Sequence record: SRR22947727_793
Length of the DNA: 32,692 bases
Reading direction: 5' to 3' (one strand)
This document shows positions 1-25,557 of this stretch, piece by piece. The notes under the pieces were generated by a model. It was not told where the DNA came from and made no database searches. It was given only the letters and a program-made list of their open reading frames with translations. The position numbers were made by a program, and so were the translations under genes. Each line of letters starts with the position of its first letter. Position 1 is the first letter of the stretch.

Positions 1-1824
1 GTCACCACCCTCTTCTTGACTGGCCTTATAAATCGCCTCGCCCAGTTTCATGGCGGCTTCCGTTACGTTTTGAACGCCAGATTTAATTTTTGCGGCATTA
101 TCGGTTTCAAGATCATCCTTCAACGCCACAATCGCCAACTCGATCGCTTCGATTGTTGTTGGATCGACCTTGTCAGCGTGCTCTTCCATCGACTTCTCTG
201 TGGAATGGATCATGCTTTCCGCTTGGTTTTTAGCTTCAATCAGCTCACGGCGCTCTTTGTCTGACTCGGCGTTTTCTTCCGCTTCGCGCACCATATTATC
301 GATGTCTTCATCCGACAATCCACCCGAGGCTTGGATGGTAATGGTTTGCTCTTTACCGGTGCCTTTATCTTTCGCCGCCACCGACACAATCCCGTTGGCG
401 TCAATGTCAAAGGTTACCTCAATCTGCGGCATACCGCGCGGGGCCGGAGGAATATTTTCAAGGTTAAATTCGCCCAGAATTTTGTTATCCTGCGCCATTT
501 CACGCTCGCCTTGGAAAACCCGAATGGTCACAGCACCCTGATTGTCTTCCGCGGTTGAGAACACCTGCGATTTCTTGGTGGGGATTGTTGTGTTGCGGTC
601 GATCAACCGCGTGAACACCCCGCCCAAGGTTTCGATACCCAAAGACAAAGGCGTCACATCCAGTAGAACAACATCTTTTACATCGCCCTGCAAAACGCCG
701 GCTTGGATCGCCGCACCCATCGCCACAACTTCATCCGGGTTCACCCCTTTATGCGGCTCTTTGCCAAAGAACTTGCTGACTTCTTCATGCACCTTGGGCA
801 TGCGGGTCATACCGCCGACCAAGACCACTTCATCAATATCGCTGGTGCTCAGCCCGGCATCTTTCAAAGCCGCCTGACAAGGTTTCATAGAGGCTTTGAT
901 CAAATCGCCCACAAGGCTTTCCAATTTCGCACGCGTGAGTTTCATCACCATATGCAATGGCTGACCAGTGCTGGCATCCATCGAAATAAACGGTTGGTTG
1001 ATTTCGGTTTGCGTGGCCGATGACAGTTCAATCTTGGCCTTCTCGGCCGCTTCTTTCAGCCGCTGTAGCGCCATCTTATCTTTTGAAAGATCAACGCCGT
1101 TTTCTTTTTTGAACTCATCCGCAAGATAATTCACGATGCGCATGTCGAAATCTTCACCACCCAAAAACGTATCGCCATTGGTAGATTTCACTTCGAACAA
1201 GCCATCATCGATTTCAAGAATGGTCACATCGAATGTACCACCGCCAAGATCATACACCGCAATAATTTTGGTTTCTTTTTTATCCAAACCATAGGCCAAC
1301 GCGGCCGCTGTGGGTTCGTTGATAATCCGCAGCACTTCCAAACCGGCAATTTTTCCAGCGTCTTTTGTGGCCTGGCGCTGCGCGTCATTGAAATAGGCAG
1401 GCACTGTGATCACGGCTTGCGTCACATCCTCGCCCAGATAAGCTTCTGCTGTTTCCTTCATCTTTTGCAAAATAAAGGCGGAAATCTGGCTCGGGCTATA
1501 GGTCTCGTCTTGGGCTTTTACCCAGGCATCGCCATTGCCACCATCCACCACCGCAAAGGGCAGGTTCTTTTTATCTTTTGCCAAATCTGCGTCATCATTA
1601 CGCCGCCCAATCAATCGTTTCACACCAAAAATGGTGTTTTCAGGGTTCGTAACGGCTTGGCGCTTGGCGGGCTGGCCAACTAAACGTTCGGCATCTGTAA
1701 AGGCAACAATTGACGGTGTGGTGCGTGCGCCTTCAGCGTTTTCAATCACCCGAGGCTGCGCCCCGTCCATAATTGAAATACAGCTGTTGGTCGTTCCAAG
1801 ATCAATTCCGATAACTTTGGCCAT
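1..1824 (-). CDS. dnaK: Molecular chaperone DnaK (Hsp70); 3' end runs off the window
   Basis: ATG at 1824 reads [15 protein letters not shown]; also [32 protein letters not shown] and [12 protein letters not shown]-like AAGAGGGA upstream. Absent from the ORF track because the stop lies outside the window. Confidence 0.98.
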
Positions 1825-1929
1825 AAATTTGATCCCTCTTCAATTTAGGCGATACGACCAACGTCAACCCATGCGGTTTTGGCGCGGCGTACTAAATGTT
1901 TGCGTAAATGCGCAAATCTGCGCCGTGTG

Positions 1930-1959
1930 TATATAGGCAGGGGGTTTGCGACCTGCAAG
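1930..1959 (-). promoter_or_regulatory. RpoH (sigma32)-type heat-shock promoter of dnaK
   Basis: Minus strand reads CTTG-N18-CCTATATA about 105 bp upstream of the dnaK ATG, matching the alphaproteobacterial RpoH consensus (CTTG-N17/18-CYTATNT). Confidence 0.8.
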
Positions 1960-2043
1960 CTTTCACAAGGCCAAGAATGCTTAAATTTAAATAAAATTTT
2001 GATTTAATTGACTTTTTCGTACAAATTAAACGCAAAAATAGCA

Positions 2044-2522
2044 CTAAATCTTTGCCAGCCAGCTCGAAGACGCCTCTGTCGGGTATAATATTCGCGTATG
2101 AAGCCAAGCATCAGCAAGCCTAAAGAAAAATATAAGGGGTAAAAAAGATCGCTGTTGCGGGGCTGATAGTTTATAAATGCAAAGCCGCGGGCCTGATCAA
2201 TCACATGAAATAGCGGGTTCCAGGTAAACATCACCAAAACCGATCCCGGCAAACTATTGGCGACAAACATCTTACCCGATGCAACCATATTCAGGCGTTG
2301 AAATACGGTTTGCACCAACATGACCATATCGGGAGCCCAAGGCTTTAATGCATAAATCACCAAACCGATCGCGCATCCGGAAAACCACGCGAGCACAAAC
2401 ATCATGAACGCGCCAAGCGGCTGTTCGATCACAAAAGGCGTAAAGGCAAGGTAATAAAATCCAAGAATAACGATAATAGAGAGCAGCTGCATATAAAAAG
2501 AACCCAATGCCGGTATTGGAAC
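2044..2522 (-). pseudogene. Remnant of a KpsM/Wzm-like ABC-2 polysaccharide export permease (C-terminal part only, frameshifted near the 3' end)
   Basis: Hydrophobic ORF with SGKMFVAN and WNPLFHVIDQARGFAF (ABC-2 permease NPL.H motif). An in-frame TGA lies about 12 codons upstream of the TTG at 2507, and there is no N-terminal half. After EYYTRQ an alternative frame gives ASSSWLAKI* (stop 2044-2046), which looks like the natural end. Confidence 0.7.
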
Positions 2523-2673
2523 CAGAGGCGTCTTTGGCTTGGCTCACGGCCATTTACGACCAAAACTTAGAAAATCACCTGCAAGATATCTATCAACAGG
2601 ATTATCTGTCATTCGGGTTTGGAGCCTGGAGCTCAACGTAAATCAAACGATGGCTCCACCGGCACTAAAGCGT

Positions 2674-3138
2674 TTAAGCGGCCTTCATCGTTTGGGCCTC
2701 GGTCAATAAGGCATAAAGCGTTTTGCTATTCGGATTGGCCCTCAGCTTGTTGCGCAGATCCATATCGCGCAACAGCCGCGACACTTTTGCCAATGCGCTT
2801 AAATGCTCAAACCCTGCATTTTGCGGTGCAAACAACGCAAACACGATATCAACCGGCAATTGATCCACGGCATCAAACATCACCGGAGTTTCCAGCAAGA
2901 TGAAACTGCCCATTACCCGCTCAACGCCCGGCAGGCGGGCATGCGGCAAAGCCACACCATTGCCCACACCGGTCGGACCCAAGCTTTCGCGCTCTTGCAG
3001 CGCGGCGACGGTATCGCCAGCATCCAAACCCAGCGCAGACTGCGCCAAATCGCCCAACGCCGCAATCAGCCGCTTTTTGCTAGACACCTTGGACATCACC
3101 CGCACCGCTTCTGGCCGCAGAAGATCAAACAATTCCAT
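2674..3138 (-). CDS. ptsN: PTS IIA-like nitrogen regulatory protein (EIIA-Ntr)
   Basis: RESLGPTGVGNGVALPHAR phospho-His motif; follows hpf; likely start is ATG 3138 (MELFDLL). Confidence 0.95.
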   Translation of the reverse strand: MELFDLLRPEAVRVMSKVSSKKRLIAALGDLAQSALGLDAGDTVAALQERESLGPTGVGNGVALPHARLPGVERVMGSFILLETPVMFDAVDQLPVDIVFALFAPQNAGFEHLSALAKVSRLLRDMDLRNKLRANPNSKTLYALLTEAQTMKAA

Positions 3139-3177
3139 TTCGCAATTCCCTAAATTCACGCTAATCCAGCGCCGATG

Positions 3178-3744
3178 TTATCGTGGTTCAATCCACCCTA
3201 TATTTCCATCGTCGCGCCGATACACCACATTAACGCTGTTTTTTCCTTCGGTTCGAAACATCAAGAACGTAGAGCCTTTGAGTTCCATTTGCATCACCGC
3301 CTCACCCACAGAGAGCGACGCAATATCATATTCAGTTTCCGCTATAATCACTGGCTCCAAGCTCTCAGGCTCAGCGTCATCGATGCCGGAATCGTTGGCG
3401 AGGGTATAAGAGGCTGCTTGAGAAAGTTCAACCGGTTCGCTGCGCTCTTTATGATGGTTCTTTAAACGCCGCTTATAACGGCGTAATTGCTTCTCTAATT
3501 TCTCATTACAGGCATCAAATGCTGCATAGATTTCAGTATCATGCGCCTTAGCCTGCGCGGTCAAACCGGATGAGAGATGCAAGGTCGCCTCACAAACAAA
3601 CTCATGCGCATTTCTGGAAAATATCACCGTGGCATCGGTGGCCCGCTGCGCGTATTTATCGATAACAACGCCTAACGCCTCCTTTGCATGCGTTTGTAAC
3701 GATACTCCAATGTCGATTTGTTTGCCTGAAATTTGATACCGCAT
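3178..3744 (-). CDS. hpf: Long ribosome hibernation promoting factor (HPF/RaiA)
   Basis: MRYQISGKQIDIG, LEKQLRRYKRRLK and the C-terminal dimerisation domain EAVMQMEL..NVVYRRDDGNIGWIEP. Confidence 0.95.
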   Translation of the reverse strand: MRYQISGKQIDIGVSLQTHAKEALGVVIDKYAQRATDATVIFSRNAHEFVCEATLHLSSGLTAQAKAHDTEIYAAFDACNEKLEKQLRRYKRRLKNHHKERSEPVELSQAASYTLANDSGIDDAEPESLEPVIIAETEYDIASLSVGEAVMQMELKGSTFLMFRTEGKNSVNVVYRRDDGNIGWIEPR

Positions 3745-3900
3745 AGAGACCCCTTATCTAGAAATTAAAGTCATAAGATTGTGTTAAGATTATGGTAGGC
3801 AACAGCATTGCCGACGATGGCGCTATGGCCTTACGTCAAAGCCGATAAGCGGCTTTCTTCCCTGCAACAGACTCAGCTGTAATCGGTTGCATTATCATCT

Positions 3901-3929
3901 ATTGAAGGCGACACAGGCGTCTGTGTCAA
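3901..3929 (-). promoter_or_regulatory. Candidate sigma70 promoter for hpf-ptsN overlapped by a palindrome
   Basis: Minus strand TTGACA(3929-3924)-N17-TTCAAT(3906-3901); inverted repeat GACACAG-N4-CTGTGTC at 3910-3927. Confidence 0.5.
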
Positions 3930-3963
3930 TGGGCAGGAGCAAAAATCCGCCGCTAAAACGCGG

Positions 3964-4737
3964 CTATCGCATCCGAAACGCATCGCCCAAATAAACTTGG
4001 CGTACATTGTCATTTTGCACTACATCTTCTGGTTTGCCAGACGTCAAAACCTTGCCATCGTGCAAAATATAAACCCGATCAACCAGTTCAAGCGTTTCCC
4101 GAACATTATGGTCGGTGATCAACACACCAATTCCGCGCGATTTCAAATCCGTGACCAATTGCCGGATTTCCCCAACAGCGATCGGATCAACCCCGGCAAA
4201 GGGCTCATCCAAAAGCAAATATTTTGGATTGGCGGCCAAACAGCGGGCGATTTCAACGCGTCGCCTTTCGCCGCCCGATAAAGCAATGGCGGGCGTGCGC
4301 CGCAAATGCTCGATTGAAAACTCAGCAAGAAGCTCTTCCAGCCTTTCGCGCCGTTTATGACGATCGCCAATTGCGATATCCAGAATAGCCCCGATATTCT
4401 GTTCAACGTTTAAGCCGCGAAAAATCGAGATTTCTTGCGGTAAATAGCCAATTCCCATCCGCGCCCGCCGATACATCGGCAGCGCCGTGATATCATCACC
4501 ATCGATGCTCACTTTTCCGCCATCAGCAGAGACTAAGCCAGCCACTGCGTAAAATGTTGTGGTTTTTCCAGATCCGTTCGGACCCAACAAACCCACAACC
4601 TCACCGCGCTGTAAAGACATTGATACATCCCGAATAACCACACGCTTTCGGTAGCTTTTTCGTAAGCCGTGGATTTTTAAACCGATTTCGGGGTTCTCGC
4701 TAGCCAACTCTGCAATATGGGCCTCCGGCTCAGTCAT
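3964..4737 (-). CDS. lptB: LPS export ABC transporter ATP-binding protein
   Basis: Walker A GPNGSGKTT, GIGYLPQE, LSGGERRRVEIAR, LLDEPFAGVDP, LITDHNVRETL, YLG; follows lptA. Confidence 0.97.
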   Translation of the reverse strand: MTEPEAHIAELASENPEIGLKIHGLRKSYRKRVVIRDVSMSLQRGEVVGLLGPNGSGKTTTFYAVAGLVSADGGKVSIDGDDITALPMYRRARMGIGYLPQEISIFRGLNVEQNIGAILDIAIGDRHKRRERLEELLAEFSIEHLRRTPAIALSGGERRRVEIARCLAANPKYLLLDEPFAGVDPIAVGEIRQLVTDLKSRGIGVLITDHNVRETLELVDRVYILHDGKVLTSGKPEDVVQNDNVRQVYLGDAFRMR

Positions 4738-5230
4738 CGCCGGTTCCCAAAACGGTTTTCACACGGCCGCTCAGCGTCGCCGCGCCCGTTTCAAGATTGA
4801 TTTCAGCCCGTTCGGCAGACAGATTATTTCCCGCCTGTCGCACAAAAACATTGCCCGTCATGATGATTTGGTCTGAATCGACCGCATATTCAGCGCGATC
4901 GGCTTTGGCTTCGTCTTCACCAGACCGCAAAATAACCTCGCCCGTTGCCAGAAGCGTTTCTATGGCGCCGCTTCCCGGCGTGTACGTCGCTTGCACAAAA
5001 TCGGCGTTCAGGGATAAATCTCCTTGCAAAATTTCAACCATCCCGCTGAATTCCGTAACCCCGGTCTCATCATTAATGGCCAATTGATCCGCAGAAATTT
5101 CAATCGGCTTTTCACGATCCGCCACGACAGATCCAAACCCCGTGGCGCCCTGCTGCGCAATTGCCACTCCGATGAACGCCCAGCCAACAAGACCAAAAAT
5201 AACTGCTTTATTCACGCCATACTCTTTCAA
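4730..5230 (-). CDS. lptA: LptA/OstA-family periplasmic LPS transport protein
   Basis: Signal peptide, PIEISADQL, G.V...QG...L.AD beta-jellyroll pattern, GRVKTV; lies between lptC and lptB. Confidence 0.9.
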   Translation of the reverse strand: MKEYGVNKAVIFGLVGWAFIGVAIAQQGATGFGSVVADREKPIEISADQLAINDETGVTEFSGMVEILQGDLSLNADFVQATYTPGSGAIETLLATGEVILRSGEDEAKADRAEYAVDSDQIIMTGNVFVRQAGNNLSAERAEINLETGAATLSGRVKTVLGTGDD

Positions 5231-5832
5231 TTTTTAGGGTCGTATAGCAGTTTAATACCACCTTTGAAAATAATTTGCAGGCTTTGCGTGGCCTCTTCAC
5301 GAAAAATTTCCATTTCCCCTGCCGATAAACTGCCATTTGGAGCCCTACCTTCAACTGGCCCCTCGGCACGCAACCATGTTTTACTGAGCTTAACCAAAAC
5401 TTTGGGGCTGCTCACCCGATAGCCCGCATCGCTGATGACCTCGACCAATTGATCGACAACCAATTCATCTTTTTCAACCTGATAGCTTCCCAAGCCCGCC
5501 GTAAGCCGTATCTGCCGAGCCTCACGAGGCTTGAGAAGCAGCGCTATATCTTCGACCAAAACCGTATCCTCTTTGGCAGGATCTGGTAGGATCTGACGGG
5601 CCGAAAGGCTGACACTGTCACCTCCCGCTGTCACCCCAGAATAATAGGGGGCGGTTATTTTCTGATCTGAAATTAAATCAAGCCGCTTGGCTTCGGAAAA
5701 AGGCAATTGGCTTTGCGTGGGCATCGGCTTTGAAATCAAGAATAAAGTTGCCAAAAGCCCCAAAGCGCTGAGCGGTAGCACAATTTTTAAGGCTACGATC
5801 AACGGGGAATAAGAGACTTTAGGCTCTGCCAT
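5227..5832 (-). CDS. lptC: LptC-family LPS export protein
   Basis: Single N-terminal TM helix (LKIVLPLSALGLLATLFL), P.YSG.T..G, C-terminal FKGGIKLLY.P; start ATG 5832; overlaps lptA by 4 bp. Confidence 0.8.
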   Translation of the reverse strand: MAEPKVSYSPLIVALKIVLPLSALGLLATLFLISKPMPTQSQLPFSEAKRLDLISDQKITAPYYSGVTAGGDSVSLSARQILPDPAKEDTVLVEDIALLLKPREARQIRLTAGLGSYQVEKDELVVDQLVEVISDAGYRVSSPKVLVKLSKTWLRAEGPVEGRAPNGSLSAGEMEIFREEATQSLQIIFKGGIKLLYDPKN

Positions 5833-5858
5833 ACTGTTTCGTGTAAACGGTTTTGAAG

Positions 5859-6470
5859 TTAATGTGCAAAAATATCGACCTCGGGCCAGCCCGCAAGATC
5901 TAATTGCGCGCGCGTTGGTAAAAACGAAAAGCACCGCGCTGCCAGATCGCTGCGATTTTCACGCGCCAAGCGTGTGTCCAATGCGATGCGCAACTGATGC
6001 AGGTAAAGAACGTCAGATGCGGCATAATCCAACTGTGCGTCGCTTAATGTTTCAGCCCCCCAATCCGATGATTGCTGAAATTTTGAGATATCAACCGAAA
6101 GCAATTCCTGCAAAAGGTTCTTAAGCCCGTGCCGATCTGTATAGGTGCGGATCAATTTACTGGCGATTTTTGTGCAATAAACGGGCTCTGCCAAGGCTCC
6201 GAATGCGTGATACATCGCCGCAATATCAAACCGACCAAAATGAAACAGCTTCAAAACATCTCTATCTTCAAGCAAGGCGCAAAGATTTGGCGCGGGCGCA
6301 GCCTCAGCTGCGATTTGCACCAAATGCGCATTGCCGTCGCCGCCCGAAAGCTGCACCAAGCACAGCCGATCACGATGCGGGTTCAAGCCCATCGTTTCGC
6401 AATCAATCGCGACCACCGTGCCCAAATCCAATTCATCGGGCAAATCGTCTTTGTAGAAAAAATTGGCCAC
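5859..6470 (-). CDS. rnd: Ribonuclease D-like 3'-5' exonuclease (short alphaproteobacterial form)
   Basis: DEDDy motifs AIDCETMG, LFHFGRFD, QSSDW, YAASDV; ends DIFAH. Confidence 0.92.
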   Translation of the reverse strand: MANFFYKDDLPDELDLGTVVAIDCETMGLNPHRDRLCLVQLSGGDGNAHLVQIAAEAAPAPNLCALLEDRDVLKLFHFGRFDIAAMYHAFGALAEPVYCTKIASKLIRTYTDRHGLKNLLQELLSVDISKFQQSSDWGAETLSDAQLDYAASDVLYLHQLRIALDTRLARENRSDLAARCFSFLPTRAQLDLAGWPEVDIFAH

Positions 6471-6735
6471 GCCCCTGCTCCTGTAAAAACCGCGCTGTCA
6501 AGGCACCCATAAAGGCAATCGCTAAGCCCCGCAACTGTTTGCGACTTCTGTTTTGCGCCACGCAACCCGCGCCTGCGGCCGCGCAAATTTAACCACAATG
6601 CATAGCCCGCGCCGAAAACCTTCAAAAATTGTTTTCGACCAAAGCCTTGAACAATAACAAGCTTATGGGCCATCATCGGCTTATCGCATTCGGGCTGAAG
6701 GCTTGATGTGCATAAGCTTAAATAGGGGGAAGGTT

Positions 6736-7551
6736 ATGCTTCCATCGAACCTTTTTGATTTGACTGGCAAAACCGCTCTTGTAACGGGCGGTGCAACAGG
6801 GATCGGAAAAATGGCGGCAACGGGATTGGCCGCGGCGGGCGCCAGCGTGTTTATTGCCAGCCGTAAGGGCGAAGATTGCCGCAAAACCGCTGCCGACATA
6901 AATGCGCTGAATTTCTCCGGATCGGTGGAAGGCTTCGCCGCGGATATCGCCACTCAAACGGGCATTGAAGCCTTGATAAACGAAGTACAAAAAAGAACCG
7001 CACGGTTAAATATATTGCTGAACAATGCTGGGCGCAGCTGGGGCGCACCGCTGGGCGCCTTCCCGCATGACGCTTGGGGCAAAGTGCTTGATTTGAACGT
7101 CACGGGTATGTTTCACCTTACGCAAGGCCTGATCGAGATTTTGGCAGCCTCGGCGCAGCCAGATGATCCATCGCGCGTGATCAATCTGGGCAGCGTGATG
7201 GGCGAAATCCCGATGGGTGATCAAGCCTATTCCTATTCTGTTTCGAAAGCCGGCGTACATCACATGACCAAGATTTTGGCCAAAGAGCTTGGTGCGCGCC
7301 AGATCACCGTCAATGCTTTAGCACCAGGGCCCTTTCAATCGGGTATGACCAAATTTGCCATTGGTGAAGACAAGGGCAGCGCCCGGGTGGCGGCGCGGGT
7401 TCCGGCGGGCCGGTTGGGGCGCCCCGAAGATATGGCAGGCGCCATTCAATTTTTATGCGGCGCCGGAGGCGCGTATATAACGGGGGCCATATTGCCGCTA
7501 TCAGGCGGGATAAACGTTGCCACAGGCCCCTCAATATTTGGAGAGGATTAG
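6736..7551 (+). CDS. Short-chain dehydrogenase/reductase (RhlG-like classical SDR)
   Basis: TGGATGIG, NNAG, catalytic S...YSVSK; SD-like GGGGGAAGG before ATG 6736. Confidence 0.9.
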   Translation: MLPSNLFDLTGKTALVTGGATGIGKMAATGLAAAGASVFIASRKGEDCRKTAADINALNFSGSVEGFAADIATQTGIEALINEVQKRTARLNILLNNAGRSWGAPLGAFPHDAWGKVLDLNVTGMFHLTQGLIEILAASAQPDDPSRVINLGSVMGEIPMGDQAYSYSVSKAGVHHMTKILAKELGARQITVNALAPGPFQSGMTKFAIGEDKGSARVAARVPAGRLGRPEDMAGAIQFLCGAGGAYITGAILPLSGGINVATGPSIFGED

Positions 7552-7554
7552 CCG

Positions 7555-8010
7555 ATGCGCCGCCTCTCACGGAAAGCGTTTAAAGCCTGTCTAGGGCAAA
7601 CATTTGCCCCCTCCCGCTGGTTTCAGATTGATCAATCGCGCATCGATGCTTTCGCGGCCACCACCGATGATCATCAATTCATCCATGTTGATCCAGAGGC
7701 CGCCGCGCAAACGCAATTTGCGGGAACCATCGCGCATGGGTTTTTGACCCTATCGATGCTTTCAGCAATGTATTATGATGCCGTGCCCGCGATAGACGGC
7801 GCCGAACTCGGCGTGAATTACGGGTTTAATAAGCTGCGGTTTCTGTCACCTGTGAAAGCCGGGGCTTATGTGCGTGGACATTTCACTCTGACCACTGTGC
7901 GCCAAATAAAAGACGATCAACTCACCAACATCTGGGATGTCAGCGTTGAAATCAGAGGCCAAGAGCGCCCGGCCTTGGTGGCTGAATGGATTGGGCAACA
8001 ATATTTTTAA
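7555..8010 (+). CDS. MaoC/NodN-family (R)-specific enoyl-CoA hydratase
   Basis: Hydratase-2 motif FAATTDDHQFIHVDP..TIAHGFLTLS and NYGFNKLRFLSPV. Confidence 0.9.
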   Translation: MRRLSRKAFKACLGQTFAPSRWFQIDQSRIDAFAATTDDHQFIHVDPEAAAQTQFAGTIAHGFLTLSMLSAMYYDAVPAIDGAELGVNYGFNKLRFLSPVKAGAYVRGHFTLTTVRQIKDDQLTNIWDVSVEIRGQERPALVAEWIGQQYF

Positions 8011-8081
8011 CGCAGCGCCCAAAACAACCTGCCGTCCGCAGGCATAACTGGGCCCGCTGATGAAAAGCTAAAAGGGGTTGA

Positions 8082-8747
8082 ATGGCCGAGCTTTACCTAA
8101 TTCGCCATGCGCAAGCCAGTTTTGGCGCAGAGAACTATGATCAATTATCCGACCTTGGCCATCAACAAAGCCAAAGCTTGGGCAAGGCCTTGGCCGATCA
8201 AGGCGTAAGCCCAGATCTTTTCTACGCGGGTGATATGCAGCGCCACCGCGAAACTTTAGAGGGTATTCAAGCCGGGCTGGGGCATAAAAAAAGCCCCTTT
8301 ATTCTTCATACTGGTTTGAATGAATTTGATTTCACCGGGCTTCTAAACGCCCGGTTTCGCAAAGGCGGAGCGCCAGCGCTGATGCATAAAGACCGCAAAG
8401 TGCATTTCAAAACTCTGCGCGACACGGTTTTGGCTTGGCAGCAAAACCAAATCGAAGATCCACCAGAAAGCTGGGGCGTATTTTGCGCTCGGGTCGAAGC
8501 GGCGCGCCAAGCGATGATGATCGAAGGGCCCAAAACCGTGCTGGCAGTCAGCTCGGGGGGCGTGATTGCTCAAATGATCGCCGCGCTGTTGCAAACGCCC
8601 GCCAAACAGCAGATAAAATTGCAACTTCAATTGAAGAATTGCGCGGTCAATCGGTTTATTTTCTCGGCGCGCTCTACCTATCTTCACGGGTTTAATGAAA
8701 CCCCGCATATCACCGCAGCCACCGCGCCGCTTTTATCTTACAGTTGA
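8082..8747 (+). CDS. Histidine phosphatase (PGM-like) family protein
   Basis: LIRHAQASFGAENYDQLS, R..ET, LNEFD, VSSGGVI. Confidence 0.88.
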   Translation: MAELYLIRHAQASFGAENYDQLSDLGHQQSQSLGKALADQGVSPDLFYAGDMQRHRETLEGIQAGLGHKKSPFILHTGLNEFDFTGLLNARFRKGGAPALMHKDRKVHFKTLRDTVLAWQQNQIEDPPESWGVFCARVEAARQAMMIEGPKTVLAVSSGGVIAQMIAALLQTPAKQQIKLQLQLKNCAVNRFIFSARSTYLHGFNETPHITAATAPLLSYS

Positions 8748-8757
8748 GGCTTTTCAG

Positions 8758-9786
8758 ATGACGGATCACACCCCCCTTGATACGGATGCAGTGGCGCTGT
8801 GGATGGCCGATCACATAAAGGGGTTTCAAGGCCCGGTATCTGCCATAAAATTCATCCTTGGCCAATCCAATCCAACCTATGCGTTAACCGCGCAGTCAGG
8901 GCGCTATGTTTTGCGGCGCAAACCGTCCGGTATCTTGCTCAAATCTGCGCATGCGGTTGAGCGCGAATTTCGCGTGCAAAACGCACTCAGCGGCAGCGCA
9001 GTTCCAGTGGCCAGAATGTACAAGCTTTGTGAAGATCCCAGCATCATCGGATCGCCGTTTTACGTGATGGATATGATAGATGGGGTGACCTATAACGAGC
9101 CGCATCTACCCGATCTCGCGCGCGAAAAACGGCGGGCGATTATTATGGAAATGAACCGCGTCTTGGGCGCCATTCATAACGTTGATTTAAGCGCAACGGG
9201 GCTGACCGATTTTGGCCCTGAGGGAAATTATTACCGCCGCCAAACCGACCGTTGGACCAAACAATATCGCGCGAGTGAAACCGAAACGCTGCCAGATATG
9301 GACGCATTGGCCGCATGGCTTGATCAGAATATGCCCGCAGAAGACGGGCAGCGCAGCTTGGTGCATGGCGATTACCGGCTTGATAATATGCTGTTTGCAA
9401 AAGACGCGCCCAACTGCTTGGCCGTCTTGGATTGGGAATTGTCAACGCTGGGCCATCCCTATGCCGATTTGGCAGGCGTGCTTATGCAATGGTCGATGCC
9501 CGTGGGGGCGCAGGGGCGTGGCTTGGCAGGGCTTGCACGCAGCGCCGAAGGGTTAATGGAGGATCAAGAATTTATCGATCTTTACTGTGCCCAGCGCGGT
9601 TTGTCACAAATCGACCGGTTTGAGTTCTATCTGGCCTTTTGTTATTTTCGAATGGCCGCTATCTTGCAGGGTGTGAAAAAGCGGGCTCTGGAGGGCAATG
9701 CCTCTAATCCTGAAAGAGCGATGCAATTGGCCGAACATGTTCCGGCATTGGCCAGCGCCGGCCTCCAAGCCGCGCAAGGCATATAA
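8758..9786 (+). CDS. APH-family phosphotransferase resembling the ACAD10/11 N-terminal kinase domain
   Basis: GQSNPTY, YVLRRKP, SAHAVERE, HGDYRLDN, LDWELSTLGHP.AD; start ATG 8758. Confidence 0.9.
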   Translation: MTDHTPLDTDAVALWMADHIKGFQGPVSAIKFILGQSNPTYALTAQSGRYVLRRKPSGILLKSAHAVEREFRVQNALSGSAVPVARMYKLCEDPSIIGSPFYVMDMIDGVTYNEPHLPDLAREKRRAIIMEMNRVLGAIHNVDLSATGLTDFGPEGNYYRRQTDRWTKQYRASETETLPDMDALAAWLDQNMPAEDGQRSLVHGDYRLDNMLFAKDAPNCLAVLDWELSTLGHPYADLAGVLMQWSMPVGAQGRGLAGLARSAEGLMEDQEFIDLYCAQRGLSQIDRFEFYLAFCYFRMAAILQGVKKRALEGNASNPERAMQLAEHVPALASAGLQAAQGI

Positions 9787-9822
9787 ATTCTAAACCGCCA
9801 ATAATAAAGGCCTTTCATTCAG

Positions 9823-10251
9823 ATGAACTCTCAAAGCCCCCCCCAAGAAGCCCCCTATCCTTTGCAGCGCCATTTAGGATTTAGCGTAACCGATTGGCGG
9901 ATTGATTACTGCCGGCTTGAATTGCCGCTTCAAGGCTTTTTAATGAACCGGCAAGGCATTCCACATGGTGGCATACACGCAACATTGATGGATACGGCAA
10001 TGGGGTTTTCGGGCTGCTTTTCGGATGATCCAGAACGCCCCCGCTATGCCATGACGCTAAACTTATCGGTCAATTTCCTTGGCTTGCCAGAAGGGGATTT
10101 GCTGATCACGCAAGCCTGGCGCACCGGCGGCGGACAAAGCACGTTTTTTGCCGATGCCAAAGTCACCGATGAAAATCAAACCGTTTTGGCCAGCGCAACG
10201 GGCGTGTTTCGCTATCGCAAAAATTTTACGAAAGGCCCAAACCATGGATAA
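9823..10251 (+). CDS. PaaI-family hotdog-fold thioesterase
   Basis: N..GIPHGGIHATLMDTAMG motif; TLNLSVNFL. Confidence 0.88.
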   Translation: MNSQSPPQEAPYPLQRHLGFSVTDWRIDYCRLELPLQGFLMNRQGIPHGGIHATLMDTAMGFSGCFSDDPERPRYAMTLNLSVNFLGLPEGDLLITQAWRTGGGQSTFFADAKVTDENQTVLASATGVFRYRKNFTKGPNHG

Positions 10252-11287
10252 GCCGACAATGCAGCATATTGTTCTATCCCAGCGCCCCAAAGGCCCCGCC
10301 CGTGAAAACCATTTTCGGCTTGAAACCAAACCCATGCCCGTGCCAGCGCAAGACGACGTTCTGGTTGAGCTTGCCTATCTTTCGGTTGATCCCTACATGC
10401 GCGGGCGCATGGATGATGTGAGATCCTATGCAAAGCCAGTTGCCTTGGGCAGCACGATGGAGGGCGGCGCGGTTGGACGGGTTATCGCGTCGCGCAGCGC
10501 CGGTTTTGAAATTGGGGATTACGTGATGGGCCCCTTTGGATGGGCCAGCCATGGCTGTTGTCCGGCGGCCCATTTGCGCAAGCTGGATACAAGCATAGCG
10601 CCGATCAGCACGGCGCTGGGGGTTCTGGGTATGCCGGGATTTACCGGCTGGTACGGGTTTGAAAAACTGGGCCGCCCCAAACGCGGGGAAACGCTTGTTG
10701 TGGCCGCGGCCACCGGCCCGGTTGGATCTATGGTAGGGCAATTGGCAAACGCCGCAGGCCTGCGCGCCATTGGGATCGCCGGAGGGGCAAAAAAATGCGC
10801 CTTGGCCATTGAGCGTTTTGGATTCAAGCAATGTTTGGACCATACCGCTTTTGCAACCTCAAAAGATCTGCGCGCAGCGCTGAAAAGCGCCTGCCCCGAC
10901 GGCGTAGATATTTATTTTGAAAATGTGGCTGGCAAAGTTCTAGAGGCCGTTATGCCTCTGATGAATACGGGCGGCCGCGTTCCGATCTGCGGCTTGATCA
11001 GTTGGTATGATGAGGGGGCTTTGGGGGGGCATGCAGCCGGCGGGGCTCAGGATAATCTGCCCAAGTTTTGGCGCAGCATTCTGGTCAAACGGCTTTCAAT
11101 CAACGGCTTTATAATCTCAGATCACTGGGCGCTTTTTGATGCATTCCTGGCGGATATTACGCCGCGGGTGGCGGCGGAAGAGATCCGGTTTTACGAAGAT
11201 ATCACAGAAGGGCTTGAAAAAGCCCCCAAAGCTTTGACCGGCCTGTTAAATGGGCAGAATTTCGGAAAACAGCTGATCAAGCTTTAG
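10244..11287 (+). CDS. NADP-dependent alkenal/enone reductase (CurA/PTGR-type MDR)
   Basis: YLSVDPYMRGRM, LGVLGMPGFT, AAATGPVGSMVGQ, DIYFENV, GQNFGKQL; overlaps the thioesterase stop. Confidence 0.92.
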   Translation: MDKPTMQHIVLSQRPKGPARENHFRLETKPMPVPAQDDVLVELAYLSVDPYMRGRMDDVRSYAKPVALGSTMEGGAVGRVIASRSAGFEIGDYVMGPFGWASHGCCPAAHLRKLDTSIAPISTALGVLGMPGFTGWYGFEKLGRPKRGETLVVAAATGPVGSMVGQLANAAGLRAIGIAGGAKKCALAIERFGFKQCLDHTAFATSKDLRAALKSACPDGVDIYFENVAGKVLEAVMPLMNTGGRVPICGLISWYDEGALGGHAAGGAQDNLPKFWRSILVKRLSINGFIISDHWALFDAFLADITPRVAAEEIRFYEDITEGLEKAPKALTGLLNGQNFGKQLIKL

Positions 11288-15582: not shown

Positions 15583-15762
15583 TGCGAAGAATAAAATCAA
15601 GATAAGATTTAAAAATAGACGCCACGCAAAAAAATCTTGAAAAGTTTTTTGTTCACTGGTGTACAGGATCATTTAAGTTTTATATATACTGCGCGCGTTT
15701 GCCTCCCCAAGGCTGGTAATCGCGTTTTGATAAAAAAGAGCAGCACCGTTGAGGAAACCGTC

Positions 15763-16242
15763 GTGAAGACCATCGCATCAGCTATATTTATGATCGCGCT
15801 TTGGCTATTGCTGTCAGGCATTTACAAGCCGATGCTGGTGGGATTTGGCATCGCCTCGGTGATGTTGGTTTTGTTTATCGTGCGGCGGATGGATCAAGTT
15901 GACGGCGATCGTGTGACGGTTGCCTTAAACCCGATCAAATTTCTGACCTATTTTATCTGGTTGCTGGGTGAAATTGCCAAATCAAATTGGGCGGTCACCA
16001 AAGTTATCTTGTCGGGCCAGGCGCCACAACGGCAGCATTTCTTTGAAATTCCTTATTCTCAATCTACTGATTTGGGGCAGGTGATCTTTGCCAATTCGAT
16101 CACCTTGACACCCGGAACTTTGACCGTTGAAACAGAGCAGGGTGATTTCCAAATCCACGCGCTTGCCTATTCAGATGAAGATCTTGAGGCATTGGCCGAT
16201 ATGGACCGTCGCGTCACCGCGATTGAAACGGAGCGGGCCTGA
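15763..16242 (+). CDS. mrpE: Mrp Na+/H+ antiporter subunit E
   Basis: FANSITLTPGTLTV and IHAL motifs; GAGG SD before GTG 15763. Confidence 0.93.
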   Translation: MKTIASAIFMIALWLLLSGIYKPMLVGFGIASVMLVLFIVRRMDQVDGDRVTVALNPIKFLTYFIWLLGEIAKSNWAVTKVILSGQAPQRQHFFEIPYSQSTDLGQVIFANSITLTPGTLTVETEQGDFQIHALAYSDEDLEALADMDRRVTAIETERA

Positions 16243-16244
16243 GC

Positions 16245-16538
16245 ATGTTTGAGATTGCCGCCATCGCCATTTTTGTTGCTATGTTGCTAGTGCTAATCCG
16301 CTTGATCAAAGGCCCCACGCTTTATGATCGCGTTTTGGCAGGAAACGCCTTTGGGACGCATACAGTGCTGCTGATCGGTGTGGTCGGGTTTTTAACCGGG
16401 CGCCCGGATTTTTTGGATATCGCGCTGCTTTATGCTCTGATCAACTTTGTTGGCACGATCGCAATTTTGAAGTTTTTCAGATATCGGGCGATCGGCGACG
16501 CGCTGTGGACGCCCAAGCAAGAGGAGCCAAAAGAATGA
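16245..16538 (+). CDS. mrpF: Mrp antiporter subunit F
   Basis: GPTLYDRVLA, LDIALLYALINFVGTIA. Confidence 0.93.
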   Translation: MFEIAAIAIFVAMLLVLIRLIKGPTLYDRVLAGNAFGTHTVLLIGVVGFLTGRPDFLDIALLYALINFVGTIAILKFFRYRAIGDALWTPKQEEPKE

Positions 16539-16909
16539 CCTTTCCCGCGCTCTTGATCGATATCTTAAGCTGGGCGATGATCCTTGCCGGATCTTTTTTC
16601 GTGATTATCGGCGCCGTTGGTACTTTGCGCTTTCCCGATTTCTGGTCACGCCTACATGCCGCCTCGGTGACAGAATCAGCCGGCATGATCTTGCTGCTGA
16701 TCGGGATGGCGCTGCAAACGGGCTGGACATTGATCGCCTTTAAACTTGGTGTGATCGGCATTTTTATGTTGATCACCGGCCCAACCTCAACCCATGCTGT
16801 GGCCAATGCCGCGCTGGTATCTGGGCTGCGGCCACCTAAATTACCCCAAACCTCGCCGCAAAAGGCTGCCGCGGAAGCGGCTGATAAAAACCAAACAGGT
16901 GACGCATAG
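16535..16909 (+). CDS. mrpG: Mrp antiporter subunit G
   Basis: RFPDFWSRLHAAS, GPTSTHAVA.AA; ATGA overlap with mrpF. Confidence 0.93.
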   Translation: MTFPALLIDILSWAMILAGSFFVIIGAVGTLRFPDFWSRLHAASVTESAGMILLLIGMALQTGWTLIAFKLGVIGIFMLITGPTSTHAVANAALVSGLRPPKLPQTSPQKAAAEAADKNQTGDA

Positions 16910-16929
16910 AAAGCTTCATTAATATAGCC

Positions 16930-17478
16930 TTGTTCAGCATGTTGGTGATCACCGCTTTGGCAGTGGTGCGCACGCATTCTTTGTTTGCTATCGTGGCGCT
17001 GTCGGGGGTGTTTAGCCTGCTTTCTGCCTTGCTTTTTATCACGCTTGATGCCGTTGATGTGGCCTTTACCGAAGCGGCCGTGGGCGCAGGAATTTCAACA
17101 GTATTGATGCTCAGCACATTGGCGCTGACATCGCGCGCTGAGAAAGTCAGCCATAAACCAAACCTAATCCCCTTACTTGCGGTGATTGTCACCGGCGCGG
17201 CACTGGTTTACGGCACGCTCGATATGCCGAGCTTTGGCGCGCCTGAAGCGCCCGTTCACACACATCTTGGCCCAGCTTATTTGCATGATATTCCACATGA
17301 TATCCACGTGCCAAACGCAGTGACTGCGATTTTGGCCAGCTATCGCGGGTATGATACGTTGGGGGAAACCGCGGTGGTGTTCGCCGCTGGGATTGGTGTG
17401 TTGATGCTGATCAGCGGATTGCGCCGGCGTCGGCGCCCCGAGGATCAGGACGATGACGCGCAGAAGGAGGCCAGCTGA
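16930..17478 (+). CDS. Mrp subunit B-related protein (DUF4040 / MrpA C-terminal-like domain)
   Basis: LDAVDVAFTEAAVGAG and NAVTAILASYRGYDTLGE, both typical of the MrpA C-terminal domain. Start uncertain: the frame is open through ATA 16906 and ATT 16918. Confidence 0.88.
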   Translation: MFSMLVITALAVVRTHSLFAIVALSGVFSLLSALLFITLDAVDVAFTEAAVGAGISTVLMLSTLALTSRAEKVSHKPNLIPLLAVIVTGAALVYGTLDMPSFGAPEAPVHTHLGPAYLHDIPHDIHVPNAVTAILASYRGYDTLGETAVVFAAGIGVLMLISGLRRRRRPEDQDDDAQKEAS

Positions 17479-17918
17479 TGCGTCACCATCTTATCTTGCG
17501 GGTGATTACCAAGCTTCTGGTAGGCACGATTTTTCTCTTCGCTTTATACGTTCAATTCCACGGTGATTACTCGCCCGGTGGCGGCTTCCAAGCCGGCGTG
17601 ATTATGGCTGTTGGGTTTATCATCTACGGATTGGTCTTCAGCCTAAAAAAGGCCAAGCAAGTGTTTCCACCTTGGTTGGTGCATAAATTGCTGGCCTTTG
17701 GCGTTTTGCTTTATGCCGGCACGGGGATTTATAGCTTGTTCATGGGCTATGCCTATTTGGATTATGCCGCGATTGACCCCCAACATCCCTCGCATGGTCA
17801 ACATTTGGGGATTTTGATCGTCGAAGCGGGCGTTGGCATCACGGTGACGGGGGTCATGGTGGCGATCTATTATGCCTTCGCGGCCCGCGCACCAATTTTA
17901 AGCGATGAGGATTGGTAG
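17478..17918 (+). CDS. mrpB: Mrp antiporter subunit B
   Basis: HGDYSPGGGFQAG, E.GVG.TV. Confidence 0.92.
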   Translation: MRHHLILRVITKLLVGTIFLFALYVQFHGDYSPGGGFQAGVIMAVGFIIYGLVFSLKKAKQVFPPWLVHKLLAFGVLLYAGTGIYSLFMGYAYLDYAAIDPQHPSHGQHLGILIVEAGVGITVTGVMVAIYYAFAARAPILSDEDW

Positions 17919-17919
17919 A

Positions 17920-18354
17920 ATGGGTACGCCAATGCTTGAATTTGTGATAGGGCACGCCAATTACTGGTTGTTTATTCTATTGATGATGACCGGCCTTTAC
18001 ATCGTGATTGCCAAAGGCAATCTGGTAAAGAAAATTGTTGGTCTGAATATCTTTCAAACCTCTGTTTTCATGCTCTATATTTCAATGGGAAAAATTGCCG
18101 GCGGCACCGCGCCGATCTTTCCTTTAGATTTGACAGTTGATCCAGATACGCTCTATTCAAACCCGCTTCCGCATGTGCTTATTCTCACTGCGATTGTGGT
18201 GGGCGTTGCCACTACATCTTTGGGATTGGCGTTGATTATCCGTATCCGCGAAGAATACCACAATATTGAAGAAGCGCAGATTGCCGAGGCCGAAGAGGCC
18301 TTATTTCAATCTGAAATCAAAGCCTCGGATACTGCAATGAAAGAGGCCGTGTGA
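17920..18354 (+). CDS. mrpC: Mrp antiporter subunit C
   Basis: NLVKKIVGL, NPLPHVLILTAIVVGVA; start 17920 (GAGG SD) or 17932. Confidence 0.93.
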   Translation: MGTPMLEFVIGHANYWLFILLMMTGLYIVIAKGNLVKKIVGLNIFQTSVFMLYISMGKIAGGTAPIFPLDLTVDPDTLYSNPLPHVLILTAIVVGVATTSLGLALIIRIREEYHNIEEAQIAEAEEALFQSEIKASDTAMKEAV

Positions 18355-19880: not shown

Positions 19881-19886
19881 GGGTAT

Positions 19887-21359: not shown

Positions 21360-21369
21360 GGAGGCGCAA

Positions 21370-21717
21370 ATGGATAAGAACCATCCCGAAGACACCAGCG
21401 GATATAGCCCCCTTGCGAAACTGTTCGTGTGGTTTGCAACGCCGGCCAATGCGAATAAAATTTTTGCCGCGCTTATTGCGCTGTGCCTGCTGCTGTTTCT
21501 GTCAGATTTTACCTATAAGAAATACGGCCATTTCCCGATCGAAAAGATCCCCGGATTTTACGGCGCCTACGGGTTTATCATGTTCACCGCGTTGATTTTA
21601 GCCGCCAAAACGCTGCGCCTCTTCATCAAACGCGACGAGACATATTATGGCGAAAAATCAGTCGATCGCGAAGAATATCCGGCCGATCAATTGGAGATGG
21701 GGCAACATAATGATTGA
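21370..21717 (+). CDS. Small two-TM membrane protein embedded in the mrp operon
   Basis: Strong SD AGGAGG; two hydrophobic segments flanking HFPIEKIPGFYG; overlaps the next gene's start. Confidence 0.85.
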   Translation: MDKNHPEDTSGYSPLAKLFVWFATPANANKIFAALIALCLLLFLSDFTYKKYGHFPIEKIPGFYGAYGFIMFTALILAAKTLRLFIKRDETYYGEKSVDREEYPADQLEMGQHND

Positions 21718-23656: not shown

Positions 23657-24328
23657 ATGATAGAGTTTCGGAATGTCAGTAAATCCTTTTGGACGGGCAC
23701 GCGCCGAAAAATCATTCTGAATAATGTGTCTTTCCGGGTAGAGCTGGGGCTATCTTTGGGCATTTTAGCCTCAAATGGCACGGGCAAAACAACCTAAATC
23801 AATATGATCGCGGGGTTGGAAAAACCGGATGAGGGCCAGATCACGCGGGCCTGCAATATATCCTTTCCTCTGGGGTTTATGGGCGGCGTTGTTCCCAAAC
23901 ATACGGGCCAAGAAAATGCGCGCTATATCGCCAAACTCTATGGGATGGATCCAAATTTTGTAGAGGCGTTTTGCCGCTGGTTATGCGGTTTAGAAGAATA
24001 TTTTGACCAGCCGCTTGGCACTTATTCTTCTGGTATGCGCGCGCGATTTACGTTTTCGCTGATGCTGGCGATGGATTTTGACGTCTATCTGATCGATGAA
24101 GGCATGCCCACCAGCACGGATGTCGAGTTTAACCGAAAAGCTGGTGAAATCTTAGCGGAACGCTTGCAAAGCACCACCACCATTGTGGTCTCGCATCAAG
24201 CAGAGGTGCTGGAACAATATGCGCAAAAAGCCGCCGTGCTTACCGTTGGCTCTTTATATTTCTTTGACAGTTTAGGCGACGCGAAAAACCGCTGCAGGCG
24301 CCCCCCTCATCGCCGCAAAAAACCTTAA
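23657..24328 (+). pseudogene. kpsT: KpsT-like polysaccharide-export ABC ATPase with in-frame nonsense codon and aberrant 3' end
   Basis: ATG 23657 reads MIEFRNVSKSFWTG..LASNGTGKTT*(TAA 23795-23797)INMIAG; then YSSGMRARFTF, YLIDEG, VSHQ. The downstream 174-aa ORF lacks Walker A. Confidence 0.85.
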
Positions 24329-24453: not shown

Positions 24454-25557
24454 ATGACGCGGCGACGGCGACGTCTAATCCAAAAGCTAATCCTGCGCCT
24501 AAGCATCTTTATTCTTCTGCCAACATTGGCCGCAGGCTATTATTACAGCTTCATTGCAACGCCAATGTTTGCCACGGACACGGCCTTCCAAATCACCACG
24601 GGTGATAGCACAAATCCAAGCTCACCTTCTATGTTTGGCGGCGGTCAATTCGCCACAACGCCCGATGCCATCGCAGTGCAAACCTATCTCCAATCAAAAG
24701 AAGCGATGATTCGCCTACAAGATAATGAAGGGTTTAAGGCCACCTTCTCGGATCCCACAATTGATTGGTGGCAACGTTTGCCTACAGAGGCTTCATTTGA
24801 AGAAACGTATAAAACCTATCTCAAGCATATCAAAATCGCCTTTGACCCCACCGAGGGCATGATCAATATGGAGATCAGCTCCCCCTCGCCCGAATTGAGC
24901 GTGTTATTTTCAAAAGCGCTTCTGACCTATGCCGAGCAAAAAATCGATGGGCTTTCGCAGCGCAAACAAGAAAATCAATTGTCTGATGCCCGCAAATCTT
25001 TGGCGACGGCAGAAGACGCGCGCGTAGACGCGCAGCGGCACTTAATTGCCTTGCAACAATCCACGCTTCTTGATCCAGAGGCCTATGCCACAAGCCTTCG
25101 AGCGCAAATCAGCGGGCTTGAAGAAAAAGCACTGCAAAAAACCATCGAGCTTCAGGCGTTTCTGGATAATGCCAATCCCAATAGCAGCCGCATTGCGGGC
25201 TTGCGCGCCGAAATCCAGCGCCTCCAAAATGCCAAACGCGAAACCGAGGCAAAAATGATTGCGCAAATGCCCAATGGGATGACGTTGCCCGAGTTGCTTG
25301 CGCGTTTGCAAATGGCCGCTTCTGACGTTGCGACGCGTGATTTGATGCTGCAATCCGCTTTAGAGCAGCTGCGCGCAACGCAAATTCAAGCCACATCGCA
25401 ATCGCGCTATCTTACAGTCGCGGTAGAGCCTATTGCACCGCAAGATCCGGCCTATCCCAGGCATATTCATGATACGCTTCTGGTGTTTTTGATCCTTTCA
25501 GGCGTGTATCTCATAATTTCAATCACGGCGTCCATTTTATGCGAACAAATCTCATAA
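24454..25557 (+). CDS. KpsE-like capsule export inner-membrane protein (polysaccharide co-polymerase), probably 5'-truncated
   Basis: N-terminal TM (FILLPTLAAGYYY..IATPMF), YLQSKEAM.RL, coiled coils, RYL..VEP.AP....YPR and C-terminal TM. The frame is open upstream to 24268 with no start codon. Confidence 0.75.
   Translation: MTRRRRRLIQKLILRLSIFILLPTLAAGYYYSFIATPMFATDTAFQITTGDSTNPSSPSMFGGGQFATTPDAIAVQTYLQSKEAMIRLQDNEGFKATFSDPTIDWWQRLPTEASFEETYKTYLKHIKIAFDPTEGMINMEISSPSPELSVLFSKALLTYAEQKIDGLSQRKQENQLSDARKSLATAEDARVDAQRHLIALQQSTLLDPEAYATSLRAQISGLEEKALQKTIELQAFLDNANPNSSRIAGLRAEIQRLQNAKRETEAKMIAQMPNGMTLPELLARLQMAASDVATRDLMLQSALEQLRATQIQATSQSRYLTVAVEPIAPQDPAYPRHIHDTLLVFLILSGVYLIISITASILCEQIS

Follow-up and report, generated by a model that had tools for sequence, protein, structure and literature searches.

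In Escherichia coli K-12 (NC_000913.3), the genes of the lipopolysaccharide (LPS) transport (Lpt) bridge are arranged in the order yrbG-kdsD-kdsC-lptC-lptA-lptB-rpoN-hpf-ptsN, with two genes for 3-deoxy-D-manno-octulosonate (Kdo), kdsD and kdsC, upstream of lptC. The Rhodobacterales type of this locus is exemplified by a 323-kb replicon of Qingshengfaniella alkalisoli, where the order is 'ribonuclease D'-KpsF/GutQ-lptC-lptA-lptB-raiA-ptsN. The DNA considered here is a stretch of 32,692 nucleotides from sequence record SRR22947727_793 (hereafter, the window), with the operon exonuclease-lptC-lptA-lptB-hpf-ptsN. As in E. coli, lptC-lptA-lptB are followed by hpf-ptsN in the same order, on the same strand and with translationally coupled junctions, but kdsD, kdsC and rpoN are missing and a gene for an rnd-like exonuclease precedes lptC. 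The likeness to the Rhodobacterales type is closer and extends to genes, order, strand and tight spacing, except that the isomerase gene is replaced by a spacer of 26 nt. The Kdo genes have probably been relocated or replaced by canonical genes elsewhere in the genome, with Lpt carrying ordinary LPS.

An earlier note on this DNA, made from the letters alone, had placed the exonuclease stop only 26 nt from lptC, and rereading of the coordinates gave the same gap, between a stop codon at 5859-5861 and an ATG at 5832. For comparison with relatives, LptB was used as the anchor, and 80 loci with 10-kb flanks (designated by L numbers) were taken from the LptB matches listed and probed by tblastn with the proteins of the window and with KdsD, KdsC, KdsA, KdsB, WaaA, LpxK and MsbA of E. 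coli K-12. Twenty-three loci were of the Rhodobacterales type, and 21 of these were assessable for kdsD, since L011 and L021 are cut off upstream. The order exonuclease-kdsD-lptC-lptA-lptB was found in 15 of the 21, and kdsD was absent at the site in the other six (L001, L002, L006, L015, L017 and L069). Because kdsD stands at this site in 15 of the assessable loci, its absence from the window is a real departure from the Rhodobacterales norm, much as the earlier note had proposed. The same note had credited many alphaproteobacteria with kdsD between rnd and lptC, which holds for Rhodobacterales but is too wide a claim for the rest, as tblastn detected kdsD within 10 kb in none of 13 loci from other alphaproteobacteria. 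Upstream kdsD-kdsC genes in the E. coli manner were found in 29 of 44 non-alphaproteobacterial loci. Neither E. coli KdsD nor the KdsD of L003, a probe carrying both SIS and CBS domains, had any KdsD/KpsF/GutQ match by tblastn in the window. A remnant of kdsD was also sought in the 26-nt spacer with relaxed tblastn (E up to 10), and none was found.

The remainder of the operon is in good order, and the statement of the earlier note that lptC, lptA and lptB are intact is borne out. All three frames are open, neighbouring genes overlap or abut, and LptB and LptA score above the cutoffs of their family profiles (Table 1); among the matches listed, the best identity of LptB to relatives is 78%. 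LptC scores below its profile cutoffs (PF06835, 20.1 bits against 21; TIGR04409, 21.7 bits against 38), and a profile built from the LptC alignment matched PDB sequences weakly, at E 0.03-0.08, with LptC at E 0.077. As this sequence-only comparison was weak, it was replaced by a comparison of folds. The AlphaFold2 model (predicted local distance difference test score 82.4) has a transmembrane helix at residues 10-33 and a beta-jellyroll of 13 strands, and its best PDB matches in Foldseek are LptC chains (4b54, 6mit_C, 3my2 and 6mjp_C; E 2e-5 to 1e-4). Moreover, the protein aligns end to end with LptC of 14 relatives and retains all invariant columns, its gene sits directly upstream of lptA-lptB, and the Qingshengfaniella homolog is annotated as lptC. 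The operon is read as a working one that codes for those components of the LPS transport bridge that lie in the inner membrane and the periplasm. A scan of positions 1800-6800 for promoters and terminators gave counts not above those of shuffled sequences (3 versus 5.8 and 9 versus 7.6, respectively).

A second Kdo gene is missing from a second conserved site. Downstream of ptsN and on the opposite strand, relatives carry genes for a sulfotransferase and a Branch/DUF5927 protein, then one or two GT2 genes, galU, kdsB and cysQ, followed by kpsM. The earlier note had put kdsB beside the permease gene in roseobacters and had remarked on its lack in the window; both points hold, as kdsB occurs in this block, adjoining kpsM, in nine of ten assessable loci (L006, L007, L008, L009, L010, L013, L014, L016 and L018; the count omits L003 and L019, which end too early). 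The sole exception is L001, where galU and cysQ are present about 350 bp apart with no kdsB between them, and a search of that gap at E up to 10 gave no kdsB remnant. In the window, only 167 bp separate ptsN from a fragment of kpsM, and the spacer codes for the end of a sulfotransferase. Over its last 29-38 residues, this remnant matches sulfotransferases of 14 relatives (tblastn) at up to 53-59% identity; its stop codon is that of the orthologs, and its relative strand also agrees with that in the relatives. The kpsM fragment shares 59% identity with residues 238-383 of the KpsM open reading frame (ORF) in L001, and the KpsM and VexB profiles match it only from positions 114 and 129 onward. 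Because the 3' end of the sulfotransferase gene is still encoded beside the C-terminal part of kpsM, a single deletion of about 8 kb, with one end within each of these two genes, evidently removed galU, kdsB and cysQ. In Qingshengfaniella, a cysQ-kdsB-galU trio adjoins dnaK with no capsule genes nearby, which suggests a long-established housekeeping block and not a kpsU dedicated to the capsule.

The kdsD-less relatives show what absence at the exonuclease-lptC site is worth as a sign of pathway loss. In five of them, namely L001 (a Cognatishimia metagenome-assembled genome, or MAG; NZ_CAXREH01), L002 (a Pelagicola MAG), L015 (a Candidatus Planktomarina antarctica MAG) and the cultured species Psychromarinibacter sediminicola (L017; NZ_JARGYC01) and Roseinatronobacter domitianus (L069; NZ_JALZWP01), the exonuclease gene runs up to or into lptC much as in the window, with junctions ranging from an overlap to a spacer of about 67 nt. 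L001 keeps the polysaccharide cluster, galU, cysQ and a full-length kpsM, whereas the window has lost all four. In L006, the kdsD slot is a 2.1-kb gap with two unrelated minus-strand ORFs, and kdsB is kept at its usual site. Since kdsB would be of no use without a supply of Kdo, absence of kdsD at the site does not by itself amount to loss of the pathway. The two ORFs of this locus, a Paracoccaceae MAG (positions 6741-8890), are of 372 and 429 aa and appear by eye to be XdhC-like and molybdopterin-binding-like.

A maximum-likelihood (ML) tree of concatenated exonuclease, LptB, Hpf, PtsN and LptA (29 rows) groups the window with L001, L002, L003, L004, L005, L007 and L008 (support 100/99), on the longest end branch of that clade (0.62 versus a median of 0.28). 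The kdsD-bearing state is basal (L018, L019, L020 and L022), and kdsD at the exonuclease-lptC site is, on this tree, ancestral in Rhodobacterales. When the kdsD label is placed on the ML tree, seven changes are counted; the well-supported branches alone force five, one of them the split from Hyphomicrobiales, and absence at the site is evidently recurrent, with at least four independent losses. A single clade of the window, L001 and L002 was not rejected (approximately unbiased test, p-AU 0.08), and the absences in these three may represent one to three events.

The long branch of the window also bears on whether the Lpt proteins have changed their cargo. LptC of the window is 30% identical to that of its clade mates, which share 34-41% among themselves, while the corresponding values for the exonuclease are 78% and 78-84%. 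Lpt-specific acceleration was considered as a sign of changed cargo and rejected, as all six window proteins are somewhat more diverged; on this branch, the divergence of LptC, LptA and LptB does not exceed that of the exonuclease, Hpf and PtsN. The G+C content of the window is low, at 51.9% (45-72% in the relatives' loci). Low G+C, the long branch and the deletions together fit a lineage under genome reduction, and the source is, by its sequence, a fast-evolving, low-GC marine roseobacter.

If the Kdo genes have left their ancestral sites, roseobacter plasmids offer a precedent for where such genes can be found. Homologs of KpsF/GutQ that share 54-62% identity with a chromosomal KdsD occur on plasmids from 12 or more genera of roseobacters, and KdsB homologs are likewise plasmid-borne. 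By coordinates, kpsF adjoins kdsB in seven records (S. guttiformis pSD118, Roseivivax THAF197b, Thalassovita gelatinovora, Pseudosulfitobacter DSM 107133, Alloyangia pacifica, Ruegeria PR1b and Sagittula stellata), and annotation confirms the adjacency for pSD118, pSD20 of Ruegeria PR1b and pTHAF197b_a. In the last of these, the only record with kdsA, the order is kpsF-kdsB-kdsA. Plasmids such as pSD118, pSD20 and that of Roseivivax THAF197b demonstrate that Kdo genes can travel as one unit, although no such cassette lies in the window. In a tree of KdsD, five plasmid copies group together (Shimodaira-Hasegawa-like approximate likelihood ratio test, SH-aLRT, 88), and the 13 lpt-linked copies from roseobacters stand separately (95). 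When positions 1-25000 of the window were compared with plasmids by megablast, dnaK was the sole match, at 75.6%. In the literature that could be searched, no paper dealt with roseobacter Kdo genes being lost or lying on plasmids, and look-ups of terms in PMC5030684 and PMC6739100 found none for Kdo. Chemical analysis of the LPS of Loktanella rosea, a roseobacter, placed two Kdo residues in its core (PMC3210612).

Two of the plasmids have further points of likeness to chromosomal loci. The 131-kb conjugative plasmid of Ruegeria sp. TM1040 (L085) carries a KpsF/GutQ gene about 2 kb from a gene annotated as lptC, and this region adjoins a rhamnose (rfb) operon. On pSD118 (L087), kpsF-kdsB lies about 6 kb from genes for a histidine-phosphatase, an NADP-oxidoreductase and a MaoC protein, and genes of the same kinds flank the exonuclease gene in the window (positions 7555-11287). 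The likeness is by gene kind only, and hints that a chromosomal neighbourhood moved onto pSD118.

Working from gene order, deletion scars, intact Lpt genes and comparative frequencies, all of which are observed, the following course of events can be proposed. The ancestor would have had kdsD, the gene for arabinose-5-phosphate isomerase, between the exonuclease gene and lptC, and galU-kdsB-cysQ a few kilobases downstream of ptsN. A kpsF-kdsB(-kdsA) cassette of the roseobacter-plasmid kind, the likeliest replacement given how often plasmids carry the two genes as an adjacent pair, could have made the chromosomal kdsD and kdsB redundant before either was lost. Thereafter, kdsD would have been removed from the lineage with no trace left, and the single deletion of about 8 kb would then have taken the polysaccharide cluster, galU, kdsB, cysQ and the 5' part of kpsM. 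As such a cassette would make both genes redundant at once, its acquisition would explain their double absence in the window and in L001. The cell would still make Kdo-containing LPS, and the cargo of Lpt would be unchanged. A location elsewhere in the genome is favoured because loss at the site is recurrent, L006 keeps its kdsB, suitable cassettes circulate on plasmids, the Lpt proteins show no acceleration and Loktanella rosea makes Kdo.

Several observations nevertheless weigh against relocation or replacement. No tblastn match to KdsA, KdsB, KdsC, KdsD, WaaA or LpxK was found anywhere in the 32.7-kb window, and a Pfam scan of 38 window ORFs detected no SIS or CBS domain. Both kdsD and kdsB are missing from separate conserved sites, as they are in L001 with galU and cysQ kept, and this double site-specific absence is equally expected from loss of the whole pathway. 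The lineage is moreover shedding envelope genes, as seen in the 8-kb deletion, the truncated kpsM and a stop codon in kpsT, and among the records examined no genome was seen that combines a cassette with empty chromosomal sites.

The best of the competing explanations, though one with a small chance of being right, is that unrelated or divergent enzymes supply the arabinose-5-phosphate (A5P) isomerase, and possibly the CMP-Kdo synthetase, from elsewhere in the genome, so that Kdo is still made although a KpsF or KdsB homolog would be lacking. In other bacteria, A5P isomerase activity is known from SIS isomerases of a single domain, and the absence of kdsD at the site in 6 of 21 relatives is permissive of such a replacement, if no more. 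However, no candidate has come to light, as the ORFs scanned in the window hold no SIS-domain protein, and the roseobacter replicons examined all rely on KpsF/GutQ and KdsB homologs of the canonical kind.

A slimmer chance attaches to the proposal of the earlier note that the Kdo pathway has truly been lost, in the lineage of the window and perhaps in that of the L001 type, such that no CMP-Kdo is made and the Lpt bridge moves Kdo-free lipid A or another glycolipid. The points that weigh against relocation, from the two emptied sites with flanks kept in L001 to the absence of any Kdo gene in the window and the decay of other envelope polysaccharide genes, all speak for it, as does the persistence of intact lpt genes over a long divergence. 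A Kdo-free envelope is also physically possible, since E. coli without kdsD and gutQ survives with suppressors; together with the LPS-free sphingomonads, such strains would provide the analogy if Kdo were truly lost, but nothing in the window data shows that lipid A or Kdo synthesis has been lost. Arguing the other way, kdsD has been lost at the same site in at least four other lineages, two of them ordinary cultured species, and L006 has retained kdsB despite its empty kdsD slot. A cassette that could serve as a replacement is already in circulation on plasmids of roseobacters, neither LptA nor LptC shows acceleration beyond the general rate of the window, and the evidence is that of a 32.7-kb window rather than of a whole genome. 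We know of no natural Kdo-free LPS.

What the locus means depends on which of these readings is correct. If, as preferred here, the Kdo genes lie elsewhere, the Lpt operon is an ordinary one, and its value is mainly comparative: two ancestral links in Rhodobacterales, of kdsD to exonuclease-lptCAB and of kdsB to galU-cysQ, have been broken repeatedly, and kpsF-kdsB(-kdsA) cassettes exist on plasmids that could take over an essential envelope function, which is one way for a plasmid to become indispensable. Were Kdo truly lost, lptCAB would have been kept under selection, it would become a question which feature of the cargo Lpt recognises, and the organism would be, to our knowledge, the first natural Gram-negative found to keep Lpt without Kdo.

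Table 1. Features of the window, in order of position
Feature	Position	Strand	Basis or remark
dnaK	1..1824	-	left end of window
kpsM-like ABC-2 permease fragment, C-terminal ~145 aa; one deletion edge	2004..2507	-	partial profile matches
Sulfotransferase 3' remnant, ~53 codons; other deletion edge	2480..2641	+	tblastn
ptsN (EIIA-Ntr)	2674..3159	-	PF00359; TIGR01419 120.6 bits
hpf, long form	3178..3744	-	PF02482 and PF16321; TIGR00741
lptB, 257 aa	3964..4737	-	TIGR04406 362.6 bits (cutoff 240)
lptA, 166 aa	4730..5230	-	TIGR03002 78.3 bits (cutoff 71.7); PF03968 75.7 bits (cutoff 20.4)
lptC, 201 aa, ATG at 5832	5227..5832	-	weak profile matches, full-length alignment and AlphaFold2 model
26-nt spacer, the kdsD slot of most Rhodobacterales	5833..5858	-	sequence read
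DEDDy 3'-5' exonuclease ('rnd'-like), 203 aa, first operon gene	5859..6470	-	PF01612 131 bits
Mrp/Pha-type cation/proton antiporter operon	15637-23404	+	directly upstream of kpsT-like gene
kpsT-like ABC ATPase	23657..24328	+	in-frame TAA at 23795-23797, directly after Walker A (GKTT*)
kpsE-like polysaccharide export inner-membrane protein	24454..25557	+	TIGR01010 150.5 bits (cutoff 437.5)

The capsule export genes of the window have fared less well than the lpt genes. An intact KpsM and KpsT pair is absent, with KpsM reduced to its C-terminal part and KpsT interrupted just after Walker A, and since kpsM is truncated and kpsT carries a stop codon, the KpsMT export system appears to be decaying. 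Beyond the stop, the kpsT-like gene continues as an open 174-aa ORF that the VexC profile matches from position 51; the gene is either a pseudogene or the stop is a base-call error. That TAA, standing where we take a Leu codon to be expected from the Walker A regions of ABC ATPases, is what favours a mis-joined or error-bearing contig as the source of both the stop and the missing genes, an explanation that is highly improbable given a window free of N, an exonuclease-lptC junction as tight as those of L001, L002, L015 and L069, deletion edges that are coherent (the 3' end of the sulfotransferase gene is in frame, and the 3' part of kpsM is open) and the kdsD-less arrangement in six independent assemblies.

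The kpsE-like protein is about 41% identical to gene products annotated as 'capsule biosynthesis protein' on replicons of Thioclava and Paracoccus. The earlier note had named kdsA as a neighbour of the kpsT/kpsE-like genes, and this is not supported, as kdsA was seen beside them neither in the one annotated example examined (Thioclava) nor in any of the 23 Rhodobacterales-type loci. A 21-kb inversion that would have split the kpsM fragment (2.0 kb, minus strand) from kpsT (23.7 kb, plus strand) was also considered and dropped; the layout needs no inversion, because dnaK adjoins cysQ-kdsB-galU in Qingshengfaniella and kpsT-kpsE form a stand-alone pair in Thioclava. The antiporter operon preceding the kpsT-like gene encodes MnhE, MrpF, MbhD/E-like, MnhB and NuoK-like subunits, together with three Proton_antipo_M proteins.

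At the other end of the window, every gene in the left 6.5 kb, the sulfotransferase remnant aside, is on the minus strand. The first gene of the operon, called rnd in the earlier note, does encode an exonuclease, but one that consists of the exonuclease domain only. The RNase D profile TIGR01388 scores 98.8 bits (cutoff 298.95) and aligns over positions 19-176 of 363 only, and the product is best described, from its profile matches, as a DEDDy exonuclease-domain protein rather than a full-length RNase D with HRDC domains. In 21 Rhodobacterales-type loci, the protein encoded just ahead of lptC or kdsD is 67-81% identical to it, and across Rhodobacterales the gene for this short exonuclease is conserved in first place, upstream of the lpt genes. 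A DEDDy exonuclease gene was also observed no more than 5 kb upstream of lptB in 5 of the 13 loci from other alphaproteobacteria (L023, L025, L028, L035 and L049), and in the one public record examined, the Qingshengfaniella exonuclease is annotated as 'ribonuclease D'. Finally, rpoN is absent between lptB and hpf in the window, where a 220-bp gap (3745-3963) is found, as it is from the same site in 17 of the 23 Rhodobacterales-type loci, all among L001-L017 and L069; it is present in L018-L022 and in most other Proteobacteria.

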